This document shows positions 33,801 to 60,246 of a DNA stretch of 64,000 bases, piece by piece. A program made the translations under genes and the position numbers. The stretch's first letter is position 1. Each line of letters starts with the position of its first letter. Under the pieces are notes generated by a model, which did not search any database, had not been told where the DNA came from, and saw only the letters and a list, made by a program, of their open reading frames with translations. Source of the DNA: a virus; IMG/VR virus record IMGVR_UViG_3300032007_000018, positions 72,445 through 136,444 of that record. One strand, 5' to 3'.

Positions 33801-34071
33801 GCCCGGGGGATTTTTAATTCGTTTTTTCGGGCGCGCCGCCCACGACCCAGCCGGCGCGTTTTCGCACTAAATCAGTAGTTCGATAATTTGTTAGCGTTTT
33901 AGTGCGCTAAAGCGCTAACGTGCAATGTCCCGAAATGAATAATCATACATGGAAAATGAATAAAAATTTTTTTGCCAAATTGCATTTTGGGGGTTGACAT
34001 TCCCGGATAATCTGGTATAATAGGTTACAGAAAGGGCAAGGAAAAGCCCCCAAACCAGAAAGGAAAAAACA

Positions 34072-34224
34072 ATGTACTCTGTGTGGATGACCGATGACCT
34101 CTGCTGCGACGATGTGATGGTGTTCGAAGGAACCCTCGCTGACTGCCTCGCCTACACCGCCGATGACGAATTCGACGAAATGTACATCGTAGAGCCAGAT
34201 GGTTTCACCGTGTACGGTGACTAA
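34072..34224 (+). CDS. Early small acidic protein (50 aa)
   Basis: Promoter TTGACA 33994 / TATAAT 34016. Conserved leader ACAGAAAGGGCAAGGAAAAGCCC..AAACCAGAAAGGAAA, shared with 35277. Confidence 0.45.
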   Translation: MYSVWMTDDLCCDDVMVFEGTLADCLAYTADDEFDEMYIVEPDGFTVYGD

Positions 34225-35153: not shown

Positions 35154-35276
35154 GCCCGCGGGGCGCTCGCCCGGGCTGAAAAAAATTTTCAAAAACCCCT
35201 TGACATTTCCGGGAAACCTGCTATAATAGATTACAGAAAGGGCAAGGAAAAGCCCAAAAACCAGAAAGGAAACGCT

Positions 35277-39037: not shown

Positions 39038-39118
39038 TTGACAAATCCCCAAACCTGTGGTACAATAAAATCACAAAAGGAGAGCTGAACTCCACAAACA
39101 GAGAAAGGGTTGATACCA

Positions 39119-39489
39119 TGACCACTTCCAAGACCACCAACAAGACCGCCCTTCAGTTCGCGCTGGACAATCTGCCGAACGCTCCCGCCGATGTGCGCGA
39201 GAAGTGGCAGAAGATGATCGACCAGCTCGACAAGAAGAACGCCGCACCCAAGAAGCTGACCGCCCAGCAGGAGAAGAATGTCGCCATGAGCGGCGAGGTG
39301 CTGGACTTCCTGCTCGACCACGAGGGCGAGGGCTTCACTGTGAGCGACCTGCTCAAGTCTGTGCCTGTCCTTGAGGGCGACAGCAACCAGCACGCCTCTG
39401 CGCTGATGCGTGCGCTTGTGCTGGCTGGCTCTGTGGAGAAGTACACCGACAAGCGGCGCACCTACTTCCGCGCGGTGACTGCCGCGTAA
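39119..39489 (+). CDS. Early protein, paralog family 1 (with 45643 and 59848)
   Basis: Promoter TTGACA 39038 / TACAAT 39061. Shares ...KRRTYF... C-terminus and ATGACC start context with its paralogs. Confidence 0.6.
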
Positions 39490-40012: not shown

Positions 40013-40100
40013 GCGCGGGGTAATTCGCCCGGGCGCAAGTTAAAAAAATAACTTTTAAAAAACTATTGACATTTAGCGCCCCCTGTGCTATACTAGAGTG

Positions 40101-40440
40101 GCCATTGACCGAGGAACTGTGGAGGGAAGCCAACATCAACCCTGCGAGTACCAAAGAATGTGTGTTGGTGATGATTACACGATGAAGTCGGCCTGCGGAC
40201 AAAAGTTTTCTTAAATGGGAGAAAGGTTATAGATGCAGCAGGAACGATGAATTTTTTAGGCAGTTTGTTTCCTGTCGGTGAAAAGGAAAAAAGACTCCCC
40301 CTTGAGGGGGCGGTGAGCAAAAATGGCAAAAGACTTAGTAGTGAGCGAGCGAGTCTTCAACTCTCAACACGCAAAAGCGAATGGTGAGCCAGAAAGCAAG
40401 AGACGCCCCCAAGAAAGGGTAAAAAAAAATGAAAAACCTA
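40101..40440 (+). ncRNA. ORF-poor transcript of about 340 nt immediately upstream of the tRNA (candidate structured ncRNA or tRNA leader)
   Basis: Promoter TTGACA 40066 / TATACT 40089. No plus-strand ORF in the track. Hairpins CCCCCUUGAGGGGG and AAGACU..AGUCUU. One weak 42-codon ORF ends at a TAG inside the next -35. Confidence 0.35.
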
Positions 40441-40474
40441 TTGACAAATAGCCAAAAGTGTGCTATACTATAAT
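40441..40474 (+). promoter_or_regulatory. Class A promoter driving the tRNA
   Basis: TTGACA, 17 bp, tgcTATACTATAAT, ending 9 nt before tRNA position 1. Confidence 0.6.
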
Positions 40475-40482
40475 CACAACAA

Positions 40483-40558
40483 GGGAATGTAACTCAAATG
40501 GTAGAGTAGCGGATTCTTACTCCGAAGGTTGCGGGTTCAACTCCTGTCATTCCCACCA
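40483..40558 (+). tRNA. tRNA-Lys (anticodon CUU) with encoded CCA
   Basis: Cloverleaf: acceptor GGGAATG/CATTCCC (7 bp); D-arm ACTC-AAATGGTA-GAGT; anticodon stem GCGGA/TCCGA (one G.A); loop TTCTTAC with U33-CUU-A37; variable AGGTT; T-arm GCGGG-TTCAACT-CCTGT; discriminator A, CCA. Confidence 0.75.
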
Positions 40559-40729
40559 ATGTTTCTAATCTCCTTTCTATTCCTCTCTTTCTGTGCAGGG
40601 CGGCTCCTATTGGGGCCGCTTTGTGCGCCCGGGCGGGCGATTGTTAAAAAATAAACTTTTGAAAAAAGTATTGACAAAACGCATCAAAGATGCTATACTA
40701 TAATCACCAAGAGAAAAGGAGATAAAAAA

Positions 40730-40942
40730 ATGTTCAATGATGCTATTCTCGTAGGTCGCAACTGCCCCTTCTGCGGCGAGTACCATGAGGTCATGGTCAG
40801 CGAAGCTGACTATGTCGCGTGGCAGAGCGGGGAACTGGCGCAGAACGCCTTCCCCTACCTCTCCGCCGATGAGCGTGAAATCCTCATCAGCGGCATCTGC
40901 CCCAAGTGCTGGGCAAAAACTTTCGGGGAGGAGGATGAATAA
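40730..40942 (+). CDS. Small Zn-ribbon protein
   Basis: Track ORF with CPFCG...CPKC. Promoter TTGACA 40671 / TATAAT 40699. Confidence 0.6.
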   Translation: MFNDAILVGRNCPFCGEYHEVMVSEADYVAWQSGELAQNAFPYLSADEREILISGICPKCWAKTFGEEDE

Positions 40943-41208
40943 TGAAAGCAACTGGAATTGTGCGCCGACTGGATGACCTCGGACGCATCGTGCTCCCCAA
41001 GGAGATTCGCCGCACTCTCAATGTTCACGAGGGCGACGCAATGGAGATTTGGGTGGATGATGAACACAAGGGCATCGTCCTCACCAAGTACAACTGCGAC
41101 GAAAACGCGGTAACGCTTCTCAAGCAGGCTGCGCAGATGCTGGAGGGCAGCGAGAACGCCGCTTATCGCGACCTTATTTTCCACATCGCATCTAAGCTGG
41201 GGGAATAA
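40942..41208 (+). CDS. AbrB/SpoVT-family (swapped-hairpin) DNA-binding regulator
   Basis: VRRLDDLGRIVLPKEIRRTLNVHEGDAMEIWVDDE matches the AbrB N-domain signature. ATGA overlap with the upstream gene. Confidence 0.7.
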   Translation: MKATGIVRRLDDLGRIVLPKEIRRTLNVHEGDAMEIWVDDEHKGIVLTKYNCDENAVTLLKQAAQMLEGSENAAYRDLIFHIASKLGE

Positions 41209-41343
41209 TTACCCCCAGCTAACCGCCCGGGCAAAAGATTGTTAAAAAATAAACTTTTCAAAAACCTATTGACAAAACAAAAAAGGTATGCTATACTATA
41301 ATCACATTGAGGGTGATGACCGAACATCGAAAGGAGATACAAA

Positions 41344-41673
41344 ATGACTTATCTTGTTAAGAGGGAAATGACAAGAGCGTGGAAGCGTTTTTCAACTTTC
41401 GCATTTCTCGACCAGTACCTGCGCGCCCACGTGGGCGACACTTTCACAGTCCGCGACCTGCGGGCTATCTGCCCCGACATCTGCCCGAACACCGCTGCCG
41501 CTTGGCTGAGCGACTACGCCAGAGCTTTCGGCGTCAAGGTCAGCGTGAGCAATACCTACATCGAACTTGACAAGCCCATCAAGATTGACAGCTGGGGCGG
41601 GCGCGCTGTCTACATTGAGGGGTATAAAGCCCACCTGTACCATGTGGACGCGCTCGACCCCACCTGGGAGTAA
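41344..41673 (+). CDS. Early hypothetical protein
   Basis: Track ORF. Promoter TTGACA 41269 / TATAAT 41297. Leader GGGTGATGACCGAACATCG. Confidence 0.6.
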   Translation: MTYLVKREMTRAWKRFSTFAFLDQYLRAHVGDTFTVRDLRAICPDICPNTAAAWLSDYARAFGVKVSVSNTYIELDKPIKIDSWGGRAVYIEGYKAHLYHVDALDPTWE

Positions 41674-43161: not shown

Positions 43162-43413
43162 ATGAATGTGGTAAAGAAAATGGATGACATTGGAAGAATT
43201 GTCATTCCCCAAGATTTGCGGCGTTCATTGCGTTGGATGGGCGGAGATGAAATTGAAATCATTTCAAACAATGATGGAAGTCTTACTTTGCGCAAGCACG
43301 AAAATGATACTGCCAAAAGATTAAAAGAAATAAGTTTGGAATGGTCTAATGACATTGATGTTGAACAGCAATTCACTGAACTAATCAAACTAATTGAAAG
43401 TAAAACAAAATAA
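43162..43413 (+). CDS. AbrB/SpoVT-family regulator (second copy)
   Basis: MDDIGRIVIPQDLRRSLRWMGGDEIEI. Class B promoter TTGATT 43111 / TATAAT 43134. AT-rich islet. Confidence 0.65.
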   Translation: MNVVKKMDDIGRIVIPQDLRRSLRWMGGDEIEIISNNDGSLTLRKHENDTAKRLKEISLEWSNDIDVEQQFTELIKLIESKTK

Positions 43414-44643: not shown

Positions 44644-44684
44644 ATCACATTGAGGGTGGTGGCCTACACTAAGGAGATTTTTCT

Positions 44685-45311
44685 ATGGAAAAGCACAAAT
44701 TTTTTGAGCGTGAAATCTTGCTTCTTGAAAGTGAAGATTTGCGCGACTTCGCCCGCTGGTATCTTGACAATCATGTGGGCAACTGGTTCTGGAAGTCTGG
44801 CGCGTCCGCAAGTGGGAAGTATCATCCCTCTTTCACTCATGGCGAGGGCGGGCTTGTGCGTCACACTCGCGCGGTGTGTATGGTCTGCGAGGAACTTCTG
44901 CGCATGAGCGGCTACGCATACATGAAAGCGGAATACAAAGACTTTGCGCGGCTTGCCTGCCTGCTCCACGATACGCGCAAGTATGGAAGCGGCGACGAGG
45001 AAGATAAGAGTTATTATCCGCGACATGGTGAAGCCGCCGCAAATGATGTTGGCGTTGCGTGGCGTGAGTTTTTCCACAGTCATTCCTGCCCCGAATTGCT
45101 CTTGATGGCTATTCGCTCCCACATGGGACAGTGGACTGAAAACCGCGATGACCGCCCCTTTACCAACATTGACCGCCTTGTGCATCTGTCGGACTACATT
45201 GCAAGCCGCCCATTTTGGGACATTCCCGAACTGACATCGCAGTATTACGAGGACGCGGCGCGAGAAATTCTTGATGCCCCGCCTGCTGGTATGGTGGACT
45301 ACCCCTTTTAA
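44685..45311 (+). CDS. HD-domain phosphohydrolase
   Basis: KYHP...H...LLHDTRKY motifs. Track ORF. Confidence 0.6.
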   Translation: MEKHKFFEREILLLESEDLRDFARWYLDNHVGNWFWKSGASASGKYHPSFTHGEGGLVRHTRAVCMVCEELLRMSGYAYMKAEYKDFARLACLLHDTRKYGSGDEEDKSYYPRHGEAAANDVGVAWREFFHSHSCPELLLMAIRSHMGQWTENRDDRPFTNIDRLVHLSDYIASRPFWDIPELTSQYYEDAAREILDAPPAGMVDYPF

Positions 45312-45642
45312 TGGGGGTAGTCCGCGCCCGGGCAGCCGGCAAATTGCACAAAAGGGGTCTAAAATTTTAACACTTTTTGTGCAAAATCCCATCTTGCAAT
45401 TTTCTGAAAATCTGCTATAATAATAATTGTCAAGAGGCGGTGGACACCGCAGAACAAAAACGAGAGGCGCGGACAGCGGTGAACAGTGCGGAGCGCCCAG
45501 CCCGAAAAAATTTTTCAAAGAAATTTGAAAAACCTCTTGACAAACAGCGCGAAGTGTGCTACAATAAGAATGTAAGCAAGAGGGAAACAAAACCCCTGCT
45601 AATAAAATGGGTGGTGACCGACACCAGAAAGAGGTAGATACT

Positions 45643-46044
45643 ATGACCAAGACTGAAAAGATGACCAACCGCAAGGCTCTGACCTACTGCATTGACAACT
45701 GCGACCTGCCCGCCGATGTTGCGGAGAAGCTGACCGCCATGGTCGCCGCGCTGGATAAGAAGTCCACCGCCGAGCGCAAGCCCACCGCCAAGCAGGGCGA
45801 GAACGCCACTGTGCGCGCCGCTGTCGTGAAGTTCATCAACGACAACGCCGAGGGCGACGGCTTCACCTGCTCCGACCTTATCAAGGCCTGCCCCGCTGTT
45901 GAGGGCAAGTCCAACCAGTATGTCTCCGCCATCCTGCGTCAGGCGGTGCTGGCTGGCGAGATTTCCAAGGGCACTGTGAAGCGTCGCACCTACTTCGCCC
46001 CTGTGGGCGTCTACGCCACCGCTGACGAGGACGAGGGGGAGTAA
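45643..46044 (+). CDS. Early protein, paralog family 1
   Basis: Promoter TTGACA 45537 / TACAAT 45560. Leader hairpin UGGUGACCGACACCA directly upstream. The track ORF has an upstream extension. Confidence 0.6.
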   Translation: MTKTEKMTNRKALTYCIDNCDLPADVAEKLTAMVAALDKKSTAERKPTAKQGENATVRAAVVKFINDNAEGDGFTCSDLIKACPAVEGKSNQYVSAILRQAVLAGEISKGTVKRRTYFAPVGVYATADEDEGE

Positions 46045-46261
46045 TCCCCCTCCCCTCACAAGGGGCAAGCGCCCCTTTACATGGGCCGTCGGGGGGTCAG
46101 GCCGCGAAAGTCAACGCTTGCCTGTGGCGTTGATAAGTAGTGCCCTTGGGCGGTCGATGTAAGGGGGCGCTTGCGCGCCCGGGTGATTGACAAAAACTTA
46201 ACGAAAATTTTTTTGAAAAAAGTATTGACAAAAGCAGACCTGTGTGCTATACTATAATTGT

Positions 46262-46545
46262 TCCAAGGGAAAAGGGAGCGCGGCGAGGGCTAACAGCGAC
46301 GAGTGGACGCACTTAGGACACCTTGACCGCGCAGGAACATTCAAGGTCGCCACGCGACCAAAAGAGCAAAAGGCAAGATGTGAGAAAGGACGAGCTTACA
46401 ATGGGTTTGCCGATGTGTTATCCTAAGTGGTGGAAGTGACCCACCCGCCAAAAAGAGGTCACCGCCTGTGGCGTCCAAAACCGCAGGTGTTGGATAAGGG
46501 GTCGTTGCCGCGAGGAGTTGCTAACCTTGCGGCAGTCGGCCCGGG
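46262..46545 (+). ncRNA. Promoter-driven ORF-less structured RNA (about 285 nt)
   Basis: Promoter TTGACA 46225 / TATACTATAAT 46248-58. Begins UUGUUCCAAGGGAAAAGGGAGCGC like the RNA at 38941. Stems GGUCGC-cac-GCGACC and UGCCGCGAGG-aguugcuaa-CCUUGCGGCA. No credible ORF; track ORF 46244..46426 starts inside the promoter. Confidence 0.45.
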
Positions 46546-46637
46546 TGATTGTTAAAAAAATAATTAGCAAAAAAGACTTGACAACGACGTAGTTATCTGC
46601 TATACTATAATCACCAAGAGAAAAGGAGATAACTAAA

Positions 46638-49220: not shown

Positions 49221-49436
49221 ACATAACCCTCCTCGCGCCCGGGTGATTTCGCCGGGCCGCTGACGCAGGCAGCTGGTCCGTTCTTCGCCCCCAAAACACA
49301 TATGCAAATTTTTTCGTCACACGAGTGGCATATGCCGCGATCCCTATTACTCCCGAAACCCCCGGTCGGGGGCCGATACCTAGCATATGGCCTTCCGGCC
49401 TTGACTTTTATAAAAAAATATGTTATAATATAAAAA

Positions 49437-49523
49437 AAAGACATATGCCAGGAGCAGACACACAAACCCCGGCCGGGGCAAGCGCAAAACTAAAAATCCC
49501 AAGCGTCAGCGCAGGGATTTTAT
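49437..49523 (+). ncRNA. Candidate small RNA (about 85 nt) with its own promoter and terminator
   Basis: Class B promoter TTGACT 49401 / TATAAT 49424. Transcript carries hairpin CCCCGGCCGGGG. Intrinsic terminator AUCCC-aagcgucagcgca-GGGAU plus UUUUAU at 49496-49523. Confidence 0.45.
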
Positions 49524-49593
49524 AGTTCAAAATGCCTCGTTTGCTATGCCCTAGCTCCATTGAAATCTAATCAACGTCTTTTTCTCCGTTGGC

Positions 49594-49622
49594 TTGATTT
49601 TCATAAAAAATTTTGATATAAT
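49594..49622 (+). promoter_or_regulatory. Representative class B promoter
   Basis: TTGATTTTCATAAAAAATTTTGATATAAT, then TTATATAGAAAAT, then AAGAGG SD. Confidence 0.5.
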
Positions 49623-49654
49623 TTATATAGAAAATAAGAAAAGAGGTAAACCAT

Positions 49655-59736: not shown

Positions 59737-59847
59737 AAACTTCCCATTGATTTTTTAAAAAAAATAATATATAATATATATGTAAGGTAAAGAAAGAAAC
59801 CCTTACAAAATCAAAAAATATTTTGGGTGGCGACCGACGCCAGAAAG

Positions 59848-60246
59848 GTGAATACCATGACCAATACTGATAAGCTGACCGACCGCAAGATTTACACCGC
59901 CATCGTTGAGGGTACCTTTGATGACCTCGACACCGATACCATCGTGGCTTGGGCTGAGAAGAAGATCGCCCAGCTCGACCATAAGGCTGAGAAGGCCAAG
60001 GAGACCGCCGCGAAGAAGAAGGCCGATGGCGACGCTCTTACCAATGCCGTTATTGCGGCTGTGGGCGAGGATTTTGAGTCTATCGCTGACATCGCGGCCC
60101 GCATCGAGGGCGAAGATGTAAGTCTGTCTAAAGTGGCCTACCGCCTCAACGCTGCCGCCAAGGCAGGGACTCTGGAAAAGGGTGAGCTCACTCTCGTTGG
60201 AGAGGGTAACAAAAAGCGCAAGGTCGTTGCGTACCGCAAAGCTTGA
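59848..60246 (+). CDS. Paralog family 1 protein (third copy)
   Basis: Leader hairpin UGGCGACCGACGCCA covaries with the one at 45612. ATGACC start context. Confidence 0.55.
   Translation: MNTMTNTDKLTDRKIYTAIVEGTFDDLDTDTIVAWAEKKIAQLDHKAEKAKETAAKKKADGDALTNAVIAAVGEDFESIADIAARIEGEDVSLSKVAYRLNAAAKAGTLEKGELTLVGEGNKKRKVVAYRKA

Follow-up and report, generated by a model that had tools for sequence, protein, structure and literature searches.

A widespread hairpin motif abutting the Shine-Dalgarno sequence in phage leaders: a putative translational operator of winged-helix protein genes

Introduction

In a stretch of 64,000 nucleotides (nt) from the IMG/VR virus record IMGVR_UViG_3300032007_000018 (positions 72,445 to 136,444; in the following, the window), two genes for small paralogous proteins, here called family 1, are preceded by almost the same short hairpin. 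In the leaders of the genes starting at 45643 and 59857, 21 of the 23 nt of this motif are identical, whereas the encoded proteins share only 30% of their amino acids. The leader is thus far better conserved than the genes. Why should two diverged phage genes keep the same few nucleotides next to the ribosome-binding site? Here, we report that the hairpin is a genuine, selected RNA structure of the sense strand with a sequence-specific flank, closing pair and loop. It belongs to an uncatalogued RNA motif, which is widespread in uncultured phages of Gram-positive gut and rumen bacteria. The element probably controls the amount of the downstream protein that is made.

Covariation of the leader hairpin

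Exact matches to the 23-mer GGGTGGYGACCGACRCCAGAAAG occur in the window only at 45609-45631 and 59825-59847. No further match was found there even if up to three mismatches were allowed, and none is expected in shuffled sequences. Both leaders quoted in a previous sequence-only reading of the window were located, and their stems, UGGUG/CACCA and UGGCG/CGCCA, indeed differ by a compensatory change from U-A to C-G. The start codon of the second gene, which had been given as 59848, lies at 59857. Two degenerate relatives of the 23-mer, GGGTGGTGGCCTACACTA at 44654 and GGGTGATGACCGAACATCG at 41311, correspond to the related leaders that had been noticed near 44650 and 41300. These are real but precede genes outside family 1, namely an HD-domain gene and an open reading frame (ORF) of 109 amino acids. 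All four copies lie on the sense strand and abut a Shine-Dalgarno (SD) sequence (Table 1).

Two sequences that differ by one compensatory pair are weak evidence. Moreover, folding of single sequences gave no significant signal for the two leaders (z-scores of -1.4 and -1.9). Among five leaders that were folded singly, none reached significance and the minimum free energy (MFE) structure of two lacked the hairpin, which makes this approach uninformative for a stem of five base pairs (bp). The case therefore rests on the comparison with relatives. These were sampled by protein and independently of the leader sequence. Since MAFFT misplaced the 3' arms in alignments of leaders with differing loop lengths, a covariance model built from 13 family-1 leaders was used instead. 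In 0.5 Mb of related DNA, the model found 64 copies. Each of the 64 shares the strand of the gene next to it, and nearly all directly precede an SD sequence. The stems of related leaders read UGGUG/CACCA, UGGCG/CGCCA, UAGCG/CGCUA or UUGCG/CGCAA, and one ortholog leader combines a UGGCU/AGCCA stem with an unrelated 9-nt loop. In the alignment of the related loci, 96.9% of the stem cells were paired compared to 86% in shuffles, the covariation was 0.416 compared to 0.199 (0 of 500 shuffles as high), and four of the five stem pairs had changed on both sides. A second set, consisting of pattern matches from IMG/VR, gave 96.1% paired stem cells (78.5% in shuffles) and a covariation of 0.499 (0.175; again 0 of 500 shuffles as high).

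Both alignments were fitted to the hairpin model and therefore lean towards pairing, a bias that is absent from a scan with free stems. When the free-stem pattern GGGTNNNGACCNACNNNARAARG was scanned over IMG/VR, 54 of 112 matches were complementary at all three free positions, compared to about 5% expected by chance, and at least 11 stem triplets were represented (AGC, AGU, CAC, CGC, GAC, GAU, GGC, GGU, UAC, UGC and UGU). Nearly all of the 54 complementary matches have an ATG within 25 nt downstream; the other matches look like chance. An exact pattern with two free positions found nothing in IMG/VR, and a looser pattern gave matches. Thus, the covariation among relatives lends strong support to the proposed selection for RNA structure beside the ribosome-binding site. 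The two findings that had been named as speaking against it, homologs without covariation and a leader confined to this genome, were clearly not made. With its compensatory changes and its location on the sense strand between promoter and start codon, the hairpin is a structured cis-regulatory element of the 5' untranslated region.

These data also bear on the view that the element has no function of its own in the message and reflects chance similarity, the passive inheritance of a duplicated leader or an intrinsic terminator of antisense transcription. It is true that both copies of the 23-mer precede paralogous genes and that a consensus scan marks the minus strand at 45626-45612 as terminator-like. 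However, conservation of the motif far exceeds that of the coding sequences, compensatory changes are found over hundreds of kilobases of unrelated phage DNA, and the covariation already contradicts this view, which we consider extremely improbable. An antisense terminator was also rejected on its own grounds, as the minus-strand T-run does not follow the 5-bp stem directly but 6 nt further on, and HD-type leaders lack it. On the sense strand, an intrinsic terminator was rejected as well, as the stem is followed by GAAAGG and no U-run.

A curated table of 50 distinct copies defines the motif. The GGG flank is present in 50 of 50 copies, pair 1 is U-A in 44 and pair 5 is G-C in 48. Pair 2 is GC in 23 copies, UA in 10, AU in six and CG in four, pair 3 is GC in 41 and AU in nine, and pair 4 is CG in 30 and UA in 19. 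The loops follow the scheme RCC-N-A with no or one extra base and are rarely longer (for instance ACCGA, ACCAA, ACCTA and GCCAA). Stem pairs 2 to 4 thus vary freely and yet remain complementary, while GGG, the closing G-C pair and the RCC-N-A loop are near-invariant. In most copies, the stem leads directly or within about 6 nt into an extended SD sequence (AGAAAGG...). The hairpin energies are modest, between -2.5 and -8 kcal/mol with a median of -4.9. Invariant flank, closing pair and loop combined with drifting stems and modest energies argue for recognition rather than bulk stability. Rfam 15 contains no match: a scan of the whole window at gathering scores returned only a tRNA, and the two family-1 leaders compared at E<=10 with permissive filters gave only noise far below the gathering scores. 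Readings of the loop as a K-turn/K-loop or a T-loop were rejected as loop position 4 is free. A STAB-SD-like reading of GGGUGGUGA was rejected as well, as the complementarity to the anti-SD sequence is gone in the variants GGGUAGCG, GGGUUGCG and GGGUCGCG.

Table 1 Motif copies, leader elements and genes in the window (positions in the window)
Feature	Position	Strand	Details
Motif copy 1	45609-45631	+	GGG 45609-45611, TGGTG 45612-45616, loop ACCGA 45617-45621, CACCA 45622-45626; model R1, 39.2 bits, E 2.9e-6
SD sequence of copy 1 leader	45626-45634	+	Extended SD AGAAAGAGG; start codon 45643
Motif copy 2	59825-59847	+	GGG 59825-59827, TGGCG 59828-59832, loop ACCGA 59833-59837, CGCCA 59838-59842; 42.7 bits; hairpin present in MFE structure
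SD sequence of copy 2 leader	59842-59851	+	SD AGAAAGGTGA; start codon 59857
Motif copy 3 (leader of HD gene)	44654-44676	+	GGG, TGGTG 44657-44661, loop GCCTA 44662-44666, CACTA 44667-44671; one G-U pair; SD AAGGAG; start codon 44685; 34.9 bits
Motif copy 4	41311-41336	+	GGG, TGATG 41314-41318, 6-nt loop ACCGAA 41319-41324, CATCG 41325-41329; pair 3 changed from G-C to A-U (compensatory); SD GAAAGGAG; start codon 41344; 22.7 bits, E 0.022
Sigma-70-type promoter	45537-45565	+	TTGACA-17-TACAAT with TG extension; predicted start about 45572
Promoter-like site	59747-59775	+	TTGATT-17-TATAAT; predicted start about 59782
5'-terminal hairpin of 45643 leader	45575-45600	+	AGCA.A.GGG / CCCCUGCU, then A-rich spacer
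5'-terminal hairpin of 59857 leader	59782-59806	+	GUAAGG / CCUUAC
Family-1 gene	45643-46044	+	133 aa; three N-terminal helices and C-terminal winged helix
Family-1 paralog	59857-60246	+	129 aa; 30% identical to 45643 protein
Third family-1 paralog	39118-39489	+	123 aa; 50% identical to 45643 protein; without motif
HD-domain protein gene	44685-45311	+	208 aa; PF01966, E 5.4e-8; leader with copy 3
109-aa ORF	41344-41673	+	Leader with copy 4

Anatomy of the leaders

Judged from the predicted transcription starts, the motif lies about 37-43 nt into the family-1 transcripts (about 37 nt for copy 1), where it follows a 5'-terminal hairpin and an A-rich spacer. The distance from the predicted start is much shorter in the HD and 41344 messages, about 8-9 nt. 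The two 5'-terminal hairpins have a purine-rich, SD-like 5' arm and a CCUC/CCCU-like (anti-SD-like) 3' arm, and relatives keep a 5'-terminal hairpin though its sequence differs. The spacer between the SD sequence and AUG, (U)UGAUACY, recurs at 45633-45642, 59848-59856 and 39108-39117 and in many related loci. It is conserved in wider-clade family-1 leaders with or without the hairpin and absent from HD leaders. Moreover, several family-1 leaders (L122, L171, L185, L187, L188, L205, L213, L216 and L248) contain a second mini-hairpin between the motif and the SD sequence, which is often closed by a GAAA-type tetraloop such as GCC-GAAA-GGC. A coding origin of the conservation, i.e. an N-terminal extension from the in-frame ATG at 45607 or GTG at 59827, was rejected: the conserved motif stands in different frames (34 and 32 nt to the ATG), and the upstream AUG is not conserved among relatives.

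The hairpin had been proposed to precede three family-1 paralogs. This holds for the genes at 45643 and 59857; the leader of the third paralog contains another, 5'-proximal hairpin, GGAG-AGCTGAA-CTCC at 39079-39093. Its relatives have GGAG/CUCC, GGGG/CCCC, GGAC/GUCC or GAGG/CCUC stems and a conserved AGCYGAA loop. This type, which was also observed in L025, L028, L029 and L056-L065, represents a second class of leader motif with covarying stems.

Distribution of the motif and linked genes

The motif is widespread in IMG/VR and in metagenome phage contigs, and according to a profile hidden Markov model, about two thirds of the pattern matches precede family-1 homologs. As a broad family-1 alignment was too divergent for the search of loci, a subfamily alignment was used. 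In a protein-anchored sample of a distant family-1 subgroup (MTKRE...), 34 of 73 unique leaders contain the motif, all with at least four of the five pairs. In related loci, the copies found with the model precede all three family-1 subtypes, the HD gene, the 41344 ORF and one ORF for a membrane protein. The HD gene carries the motif in its leader in every related genome examined, and orthologous HD leaders keep it in at least 12 related contigs. The gene is confined to the clade of the window, while the motif is far wider.

A stem-restricted pattern gave only nine matches in 185,579 species genomes, and the plausible ones are mostly on short contigs of metagenome-assembled genomes or in the context of mobile elements. 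One match, in Bacillus massiliigorillae, lies next to an integrase and an SU10-type capsid gene, and another one shares a Nanosyncoccus contig with an arginyl-tRNA synthetase gene. In the B. massiliigorillae sequence NZ_HG428741.1 (L067, 1777-6981), the phage integrase is located only about 3.4 kb from the motif-bearing SU10-type major capsid gene, and the locus could be a small prophage or a satellite-like element. Megablast and blastn searches against cultured phage records yielded neither relatives nor copies of the motif. As far as the searched sequences tell, the motif is mostly phage-borne.

Family-1 proteins

The family-1 proteins have about 115-135 amino acids and numerous homologs (336 matches in one search). 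Searches of Pfam and PHROGs with family 1 and with the 41344 ORF returned nothing; the protein of the latter is weakly and only locally similar to the beginning of the winged helix of family 1 (hhalign, 55% probability, 24 columns). The structure of family 1, three helices and a winged helix, is predicted with confidence (predicted local distance difference test, pLDDT, of 86.6). The structural neighbours are mostly regulators of the Fur, ArsR and MarR types, and they also include Z-alpha domains and the SECIS-binding domain of SelB, which recognises this RNA hairpin of selenocysteine insertion. Among the close homologs that were aligned, residues 91-102, which form the putative recognition helix, hardly vary.

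Two of the three family-1 genes of the window have a G+C content at third codon positions (GC3) of 0.85-0.86, the highest in the window, and AAG:AAA ratios of 12:0 and 13:0; the 45643 gene is one of them (0.85 and 13:0). The remaining gene has a GC3 of 0.67 and a ratio of 14:3. A tRNA-Lys(CUU) with its own consensus promoter at 40441 is encoded at 40483-40558 (Rfam match 40483-40555), near family-1 genes. Codon bias and tRNA gene together suggest very high expression. The HD gene carries the motif without a strong codon bias.

A possible pseudoknot

Some of the family-1 leaders that lack the motif carry another element, which ends exactly at AGAAAGAGG and consists of the segments S1a-S2a-S1b-loop(4-7)-S2b. 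In these sister leaders, S1 is GGCG:CGCC, CGCG:CGCG, UGGU:ACCA or UGCG:UGCA, and S2 is CCCAC:GUGGG, CUUAC:GUAAG, CCACU:AGUGG, CCAGC:GCUGG or CACC:GGUG. Both stems of this H-type pseudoknot covary (L203, L207, L210, L223, L249, L253 and L254). Furthermore, in a topology scan, 25 of 74 protein-anchored leaders fitted a pseudoknot with 7 bp or more that ends at the SD sequence, compared to 1.5 in shuffles. H-type pseudoknot leaders ending at AGAAAGAGG were also observed in L236 and L242 and on the minus strand of L149 near 10450; in all of these loci other than L149, the element lies about 35 nt before position 401.

The hairpin described here fits the same topology, and it is plausible that it is likewise stem 2 of a compact H-type mini-pseudoknot, smaller than those of the sister leaders. 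Stem 1 would be formed by pairing of the flank GG(U) with (A)CC of the loop, and N-A would be the crossing loop. Such a GG:CC stem 1 would explain why GGG and CC do not change. With stem 2 fixed, GGG and RCC occur together in 15 of 15 real sites and in 0 of 17 chance sites. Two points weigh against the pseudoknot. With stem 2 held fixed, no covariation of stem 1 was detected within the motif, GGG and RCC being invariant. Moreover, there is no linker nucleotide (L1 = 0 nt), so that not all pairs could form together and the fold is sterically doubtful. The fuller model, in which an 18-23 nt phage mini-pseudoknot is welded to the SD sequence and is either read by a winged-helix autoregulator or acts as a portable high-expression module (by stacking on the SD/anti-SD helix or by blocking RNase J1), seems to us somewhat unlikely as a whole.

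What reads the motif?

We tentatively favour the reading that the element is a putative translational operator recognised by a protein, most simply by the family-1 protein itself, although we would not call this probable. The element would be the recognition site for a protein controlling translation initiation. Family-1 protein in excess would bind the structure next to the SD sequence of its own mRNA and hinder binding of the 30S ribosomal subunit. The same protein would bind a few other mRNAs, such as those of the HD gene and the 41344 ORF, which would thereby be co-regulated. This reading is favoured because the motif tracks family-1 genes across very divergent phages, because the RNA is more conserved than the proteins, with flank and loop as invariant as in protein-recognised hairpins, and because family 1 has a nucleic-acid-binding winged-helix fold. 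The location is also that of an operator: the stem ends 0-6 nt before the SD sequence in most copies, and most copies precede family-1 genes.

Several observations speak against a translational operator for family 1. About half of the family-1 genes lack the motif. Conversely, it is also found before the HD gene, two SU10-type major capsid genes (one of these copies lies inside an operon, 56 nt after the upstream ORF), a gene resembling that of the phi29 single-stranded DNA-binding protein (SSB), whose match is below the Pfam cut-off, and about ten small, unrelated ORFs. On those contigs with the motif before other genes, 4-14 kb of which were examined in each case, no family-1 gene was seen. 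Winged helices mostly bind double-stranded DNA. Furthermore, the link between motif and family may simply mark the most highly expressed genes, since the codon bias of family 1 is the strongest in the window.

The last point leads to the main competitor, a constitutive cis element that uses only host machinery and serves the stability, the processing or the SD presentation of messages for bulk proteins. It might shield the message against 5'-to-3' decay, or it might mark an endonucleolytic processing site within the A-rich spacer or resist cleavage there. Alternatively, it might pre-stack the SD sequence or stack on the SD/anti-SD helix. In each of these cases, proteins required in large amounts would be highly expressed. 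The motif precedes genes for abundant proteins (major capsid, SSB-like), and two of the window's family-1 genes combine extreme codon bias with exclusive use of AAG and a phage tRNA-Lys(CUU) nearby. Moreover, AGAAAG, which is complementary to the very 3' end of Firmicute 16S rRNA, begins in most copies right at the end of the stem or a few nt further on. The structure is preceded by an A-rich single strand; in Staphylococcus, a duplex downstream of the cut guides RNase Y, and the cleavage stabilises the fragment downstream (PMC5449607). However, the guide structure in that work is a duplex of 24 bp and not of 5 bp. The hairpin is of modest stability, with some copies near -2.5 to -3.5 kcal/mol, and a passive block needs no invariant loop and flank bases. 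In addition, hardly any bacterial chromosomal gene carries the motif in the form that was tested, which would be odd for an enhancer recognised by the host. Of the window's early genes with equivalent promoters, about 35 in number, only four carry the motif, and one of them, the HD gene, has no strong codon bias. Taken together, host machinery acting alone is a realistic possibility, but one that we regard as doubtful.

The fold of family 1 invites a third reading, in which a family-1 dimer would bind the inverted repeat TGGYG-N5-CRCCA as duplex DNA and form a transcriptional roadblock past the promoter. The closest structural matches of the fold are mostly Fur, ArsR and MarR repressors, and two 5-bp half-sites with a 5-bp spacer are offset by one helical turn. 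The numbers of G-U and A-C mismatches were equivocal and do not tell strands, or RNA and DNA, apart. However, the symmetric half-sites, fixed spacing and base-specific conservation of a palindromic DNA operator were not found. The arms are spaced by 5, 6, 7 or 9 nt, with variation even among the copies of one genome, and conservation is asymmetric: GGG flanks just one of the arms, and the RCC-N-A centre is not palindromic. The putative recognition helix is nearly invariant in close homologs, whereas at least 11 different sequences are found in the arms. The position follows the SD sequence and not the promoter, and the pseudoknots of the sister leaders would be meaningless in duplex DNA. A DNA operator is thus very improbable.

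Finally, the RNA could serve another role, either as a tiny ligand- or RNA-sensing pseudoknot or as the target of a phage or host endoribonuclease, for instance the adjacent HD-domain protein, that times the shut-off of the message. A pseudoknot topology abutting the SD sequence is reminiscent of small translational riboswitches, and the HD gene adjoining the family-1 gene itself carries the motif throughout the related genomes examined. These arguments are opposed by the lack of an Rfam match even at E<=10, by an SD sequence that is not sequestered in the modelled fold and by the small size of the element (18-23 nt). Moreover, the HD gene is limited to the clade of the window, whereas the motif is distributed much more widely. 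We consider such a role improbable.

Comparison with known leader elements

The putative operator resembles several known systems. In phage T4, gene 43 has a short leader hairpin with specific loop bases; the operator reaches the ribosome-binding site, and the encoded protein binds it and represses its own translation (PMC3014915). The short hairpin, the sequence-specific loop and the leader position at the ribosome-binding site are common to both elements. There is, however, no homology in sequence or protein, the loop is UAAC in T4 and RCC-N-A here, and the binder is only putative in our case. Moreover, the present motif is also found before unrelated genes and has an invariant GGG flank. 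The leader of T4 gene 32 is a compact and larger H-type pseudoknot, which is parted from the SD sequence by an A/U-rich tract that is bound cooperatively. In contrast, the structure described here touches the SD sequence, and the proposed stem 1 would have only two or three G-C pairs. Provided that the pseudoknot exists here too, the likeness lies in a gene for an abundant nucleic-acid-binding protein behind a leader structure near the ribosome-binding site (PMC3014915). The T4 RegA protein (122 amino acids) represses about 30 early mRNAs in addition to its own, acting at the initiation region of each (PMC3014915). The logic would be similar if family 1 also controlled the HD and 41344 messages, but the RegA sites are unstructured, A/U-rich and overlap the AUG, and the fold of the protein is different.

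The boxB elements of lambda and P22 are hairpins of 15 nt with a 5-bp stem and a pentaloop; their stems are variable, their loops are fixed, and they lie early in transcripts. The motif shares the 5-bp stem, the pentaloop and the combination of a variable stem with fixed loop bases. However, the boxB loops are GNRA-like (GAAAA, GACAA), whereas ACCNA is found here, so that the GNRA-like pentaloop of a lambda-type nut site is absent, and the position of the motif is tied to the SD sequence. By eye, without a dedicated search, no boxA-like element was seen in the A-rich spacer before GGG and no evident arginine-rich motif in family 1. In Gram-positive bacteria, 5' stabilisers such as the aprE leader stem-loop, ermC, the SP82 polypurine element and STAB-SD raise the half-life of mRNAs. 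They are likewise leader structures or SD-like elements of Firmicute and phage messages, a resemblance that is a lead and not a test. However, they act on the 5' end itself or no more than a few nt away from it, and neither a loop nor a flank is conserved in them. The family-1 leaders already possess a separate 5'-terminal hairpin at that position. It can be stated that the motif belongs to none of the gp43 operator, boxB and gene 32 leader types and is an uncatalogued cis-regulatory leader motif.

Genomic context of the window

The window is phage-like, with no close cultured phage. Between 31621 and 49430, the plus strand has about 35 sigma-70-type promoters of near-identical sequence (TTGACA-17-TGCTATACT). 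A-rich tracts lie upstream of them, and each precedes a small gene. This array corresponds to apparently monocistronic early units of 45-55% G+C in a phage of 33% G+C. Three leaders, after the promoters at 40671, 43657 and 46578, are identical, and two further early leaders (34030-34075 and 35235-35276) share the hairpin GGGC-AAGGAAAA-GCCC followed by CCAGAAAGG. The consensus promoters at 46225, 40066 and 49401 lead into stretches without a convincing ORF (46254-46577, 40095-40440 and 49430-49650) and in which Rfam finds nothing; these stretches are possible non-coding RNAs or long leaders. Two small early proteins (40942-41208 and 43162-43413) have an AbrB/MazE/SpoVT-like N-terminus (MK..G.VRRLD.LGRIV.P), and related loci have PF04014 matches at the equivalent positions.

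The minus strand of positions 1-28000 (33% G+C) contains six ORFs of at least 200 codons by the standard code and 17 if TAG is read through, among them ORFs of 3060, 590 and 570 codons. Thus, the late minus-strand region appears to be TAG-recoded, whereas the plus-strand early region reads normally. No suppressor tRNA was found in the window.

Implications

Many gut and rumen phages have several copies of family 1, and large TAG-recoded phages like the one described here are among them. If the motif is indeed a translational operator, it would be a very small, recognisable and widespread addition to the short list of phage-encoded cis-regulators of translation, and it would give a first clue to the function of a large and uncharacterised family of winged-helix proteins. 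RNA-binding translational autoregulation would also be an unusual activity for the winged-helix fold in phages. If the motif is instead a portable high-expression module, it would be one that has been adopted by diverse phages of Gram-positive bacteria and apparently by few host genes. In either case, the motif is short, modular and located at the ribosome-binding site; it is therefore directly testable and could perhaps be reused as an expression or regulation part in Gram-positive hosts.

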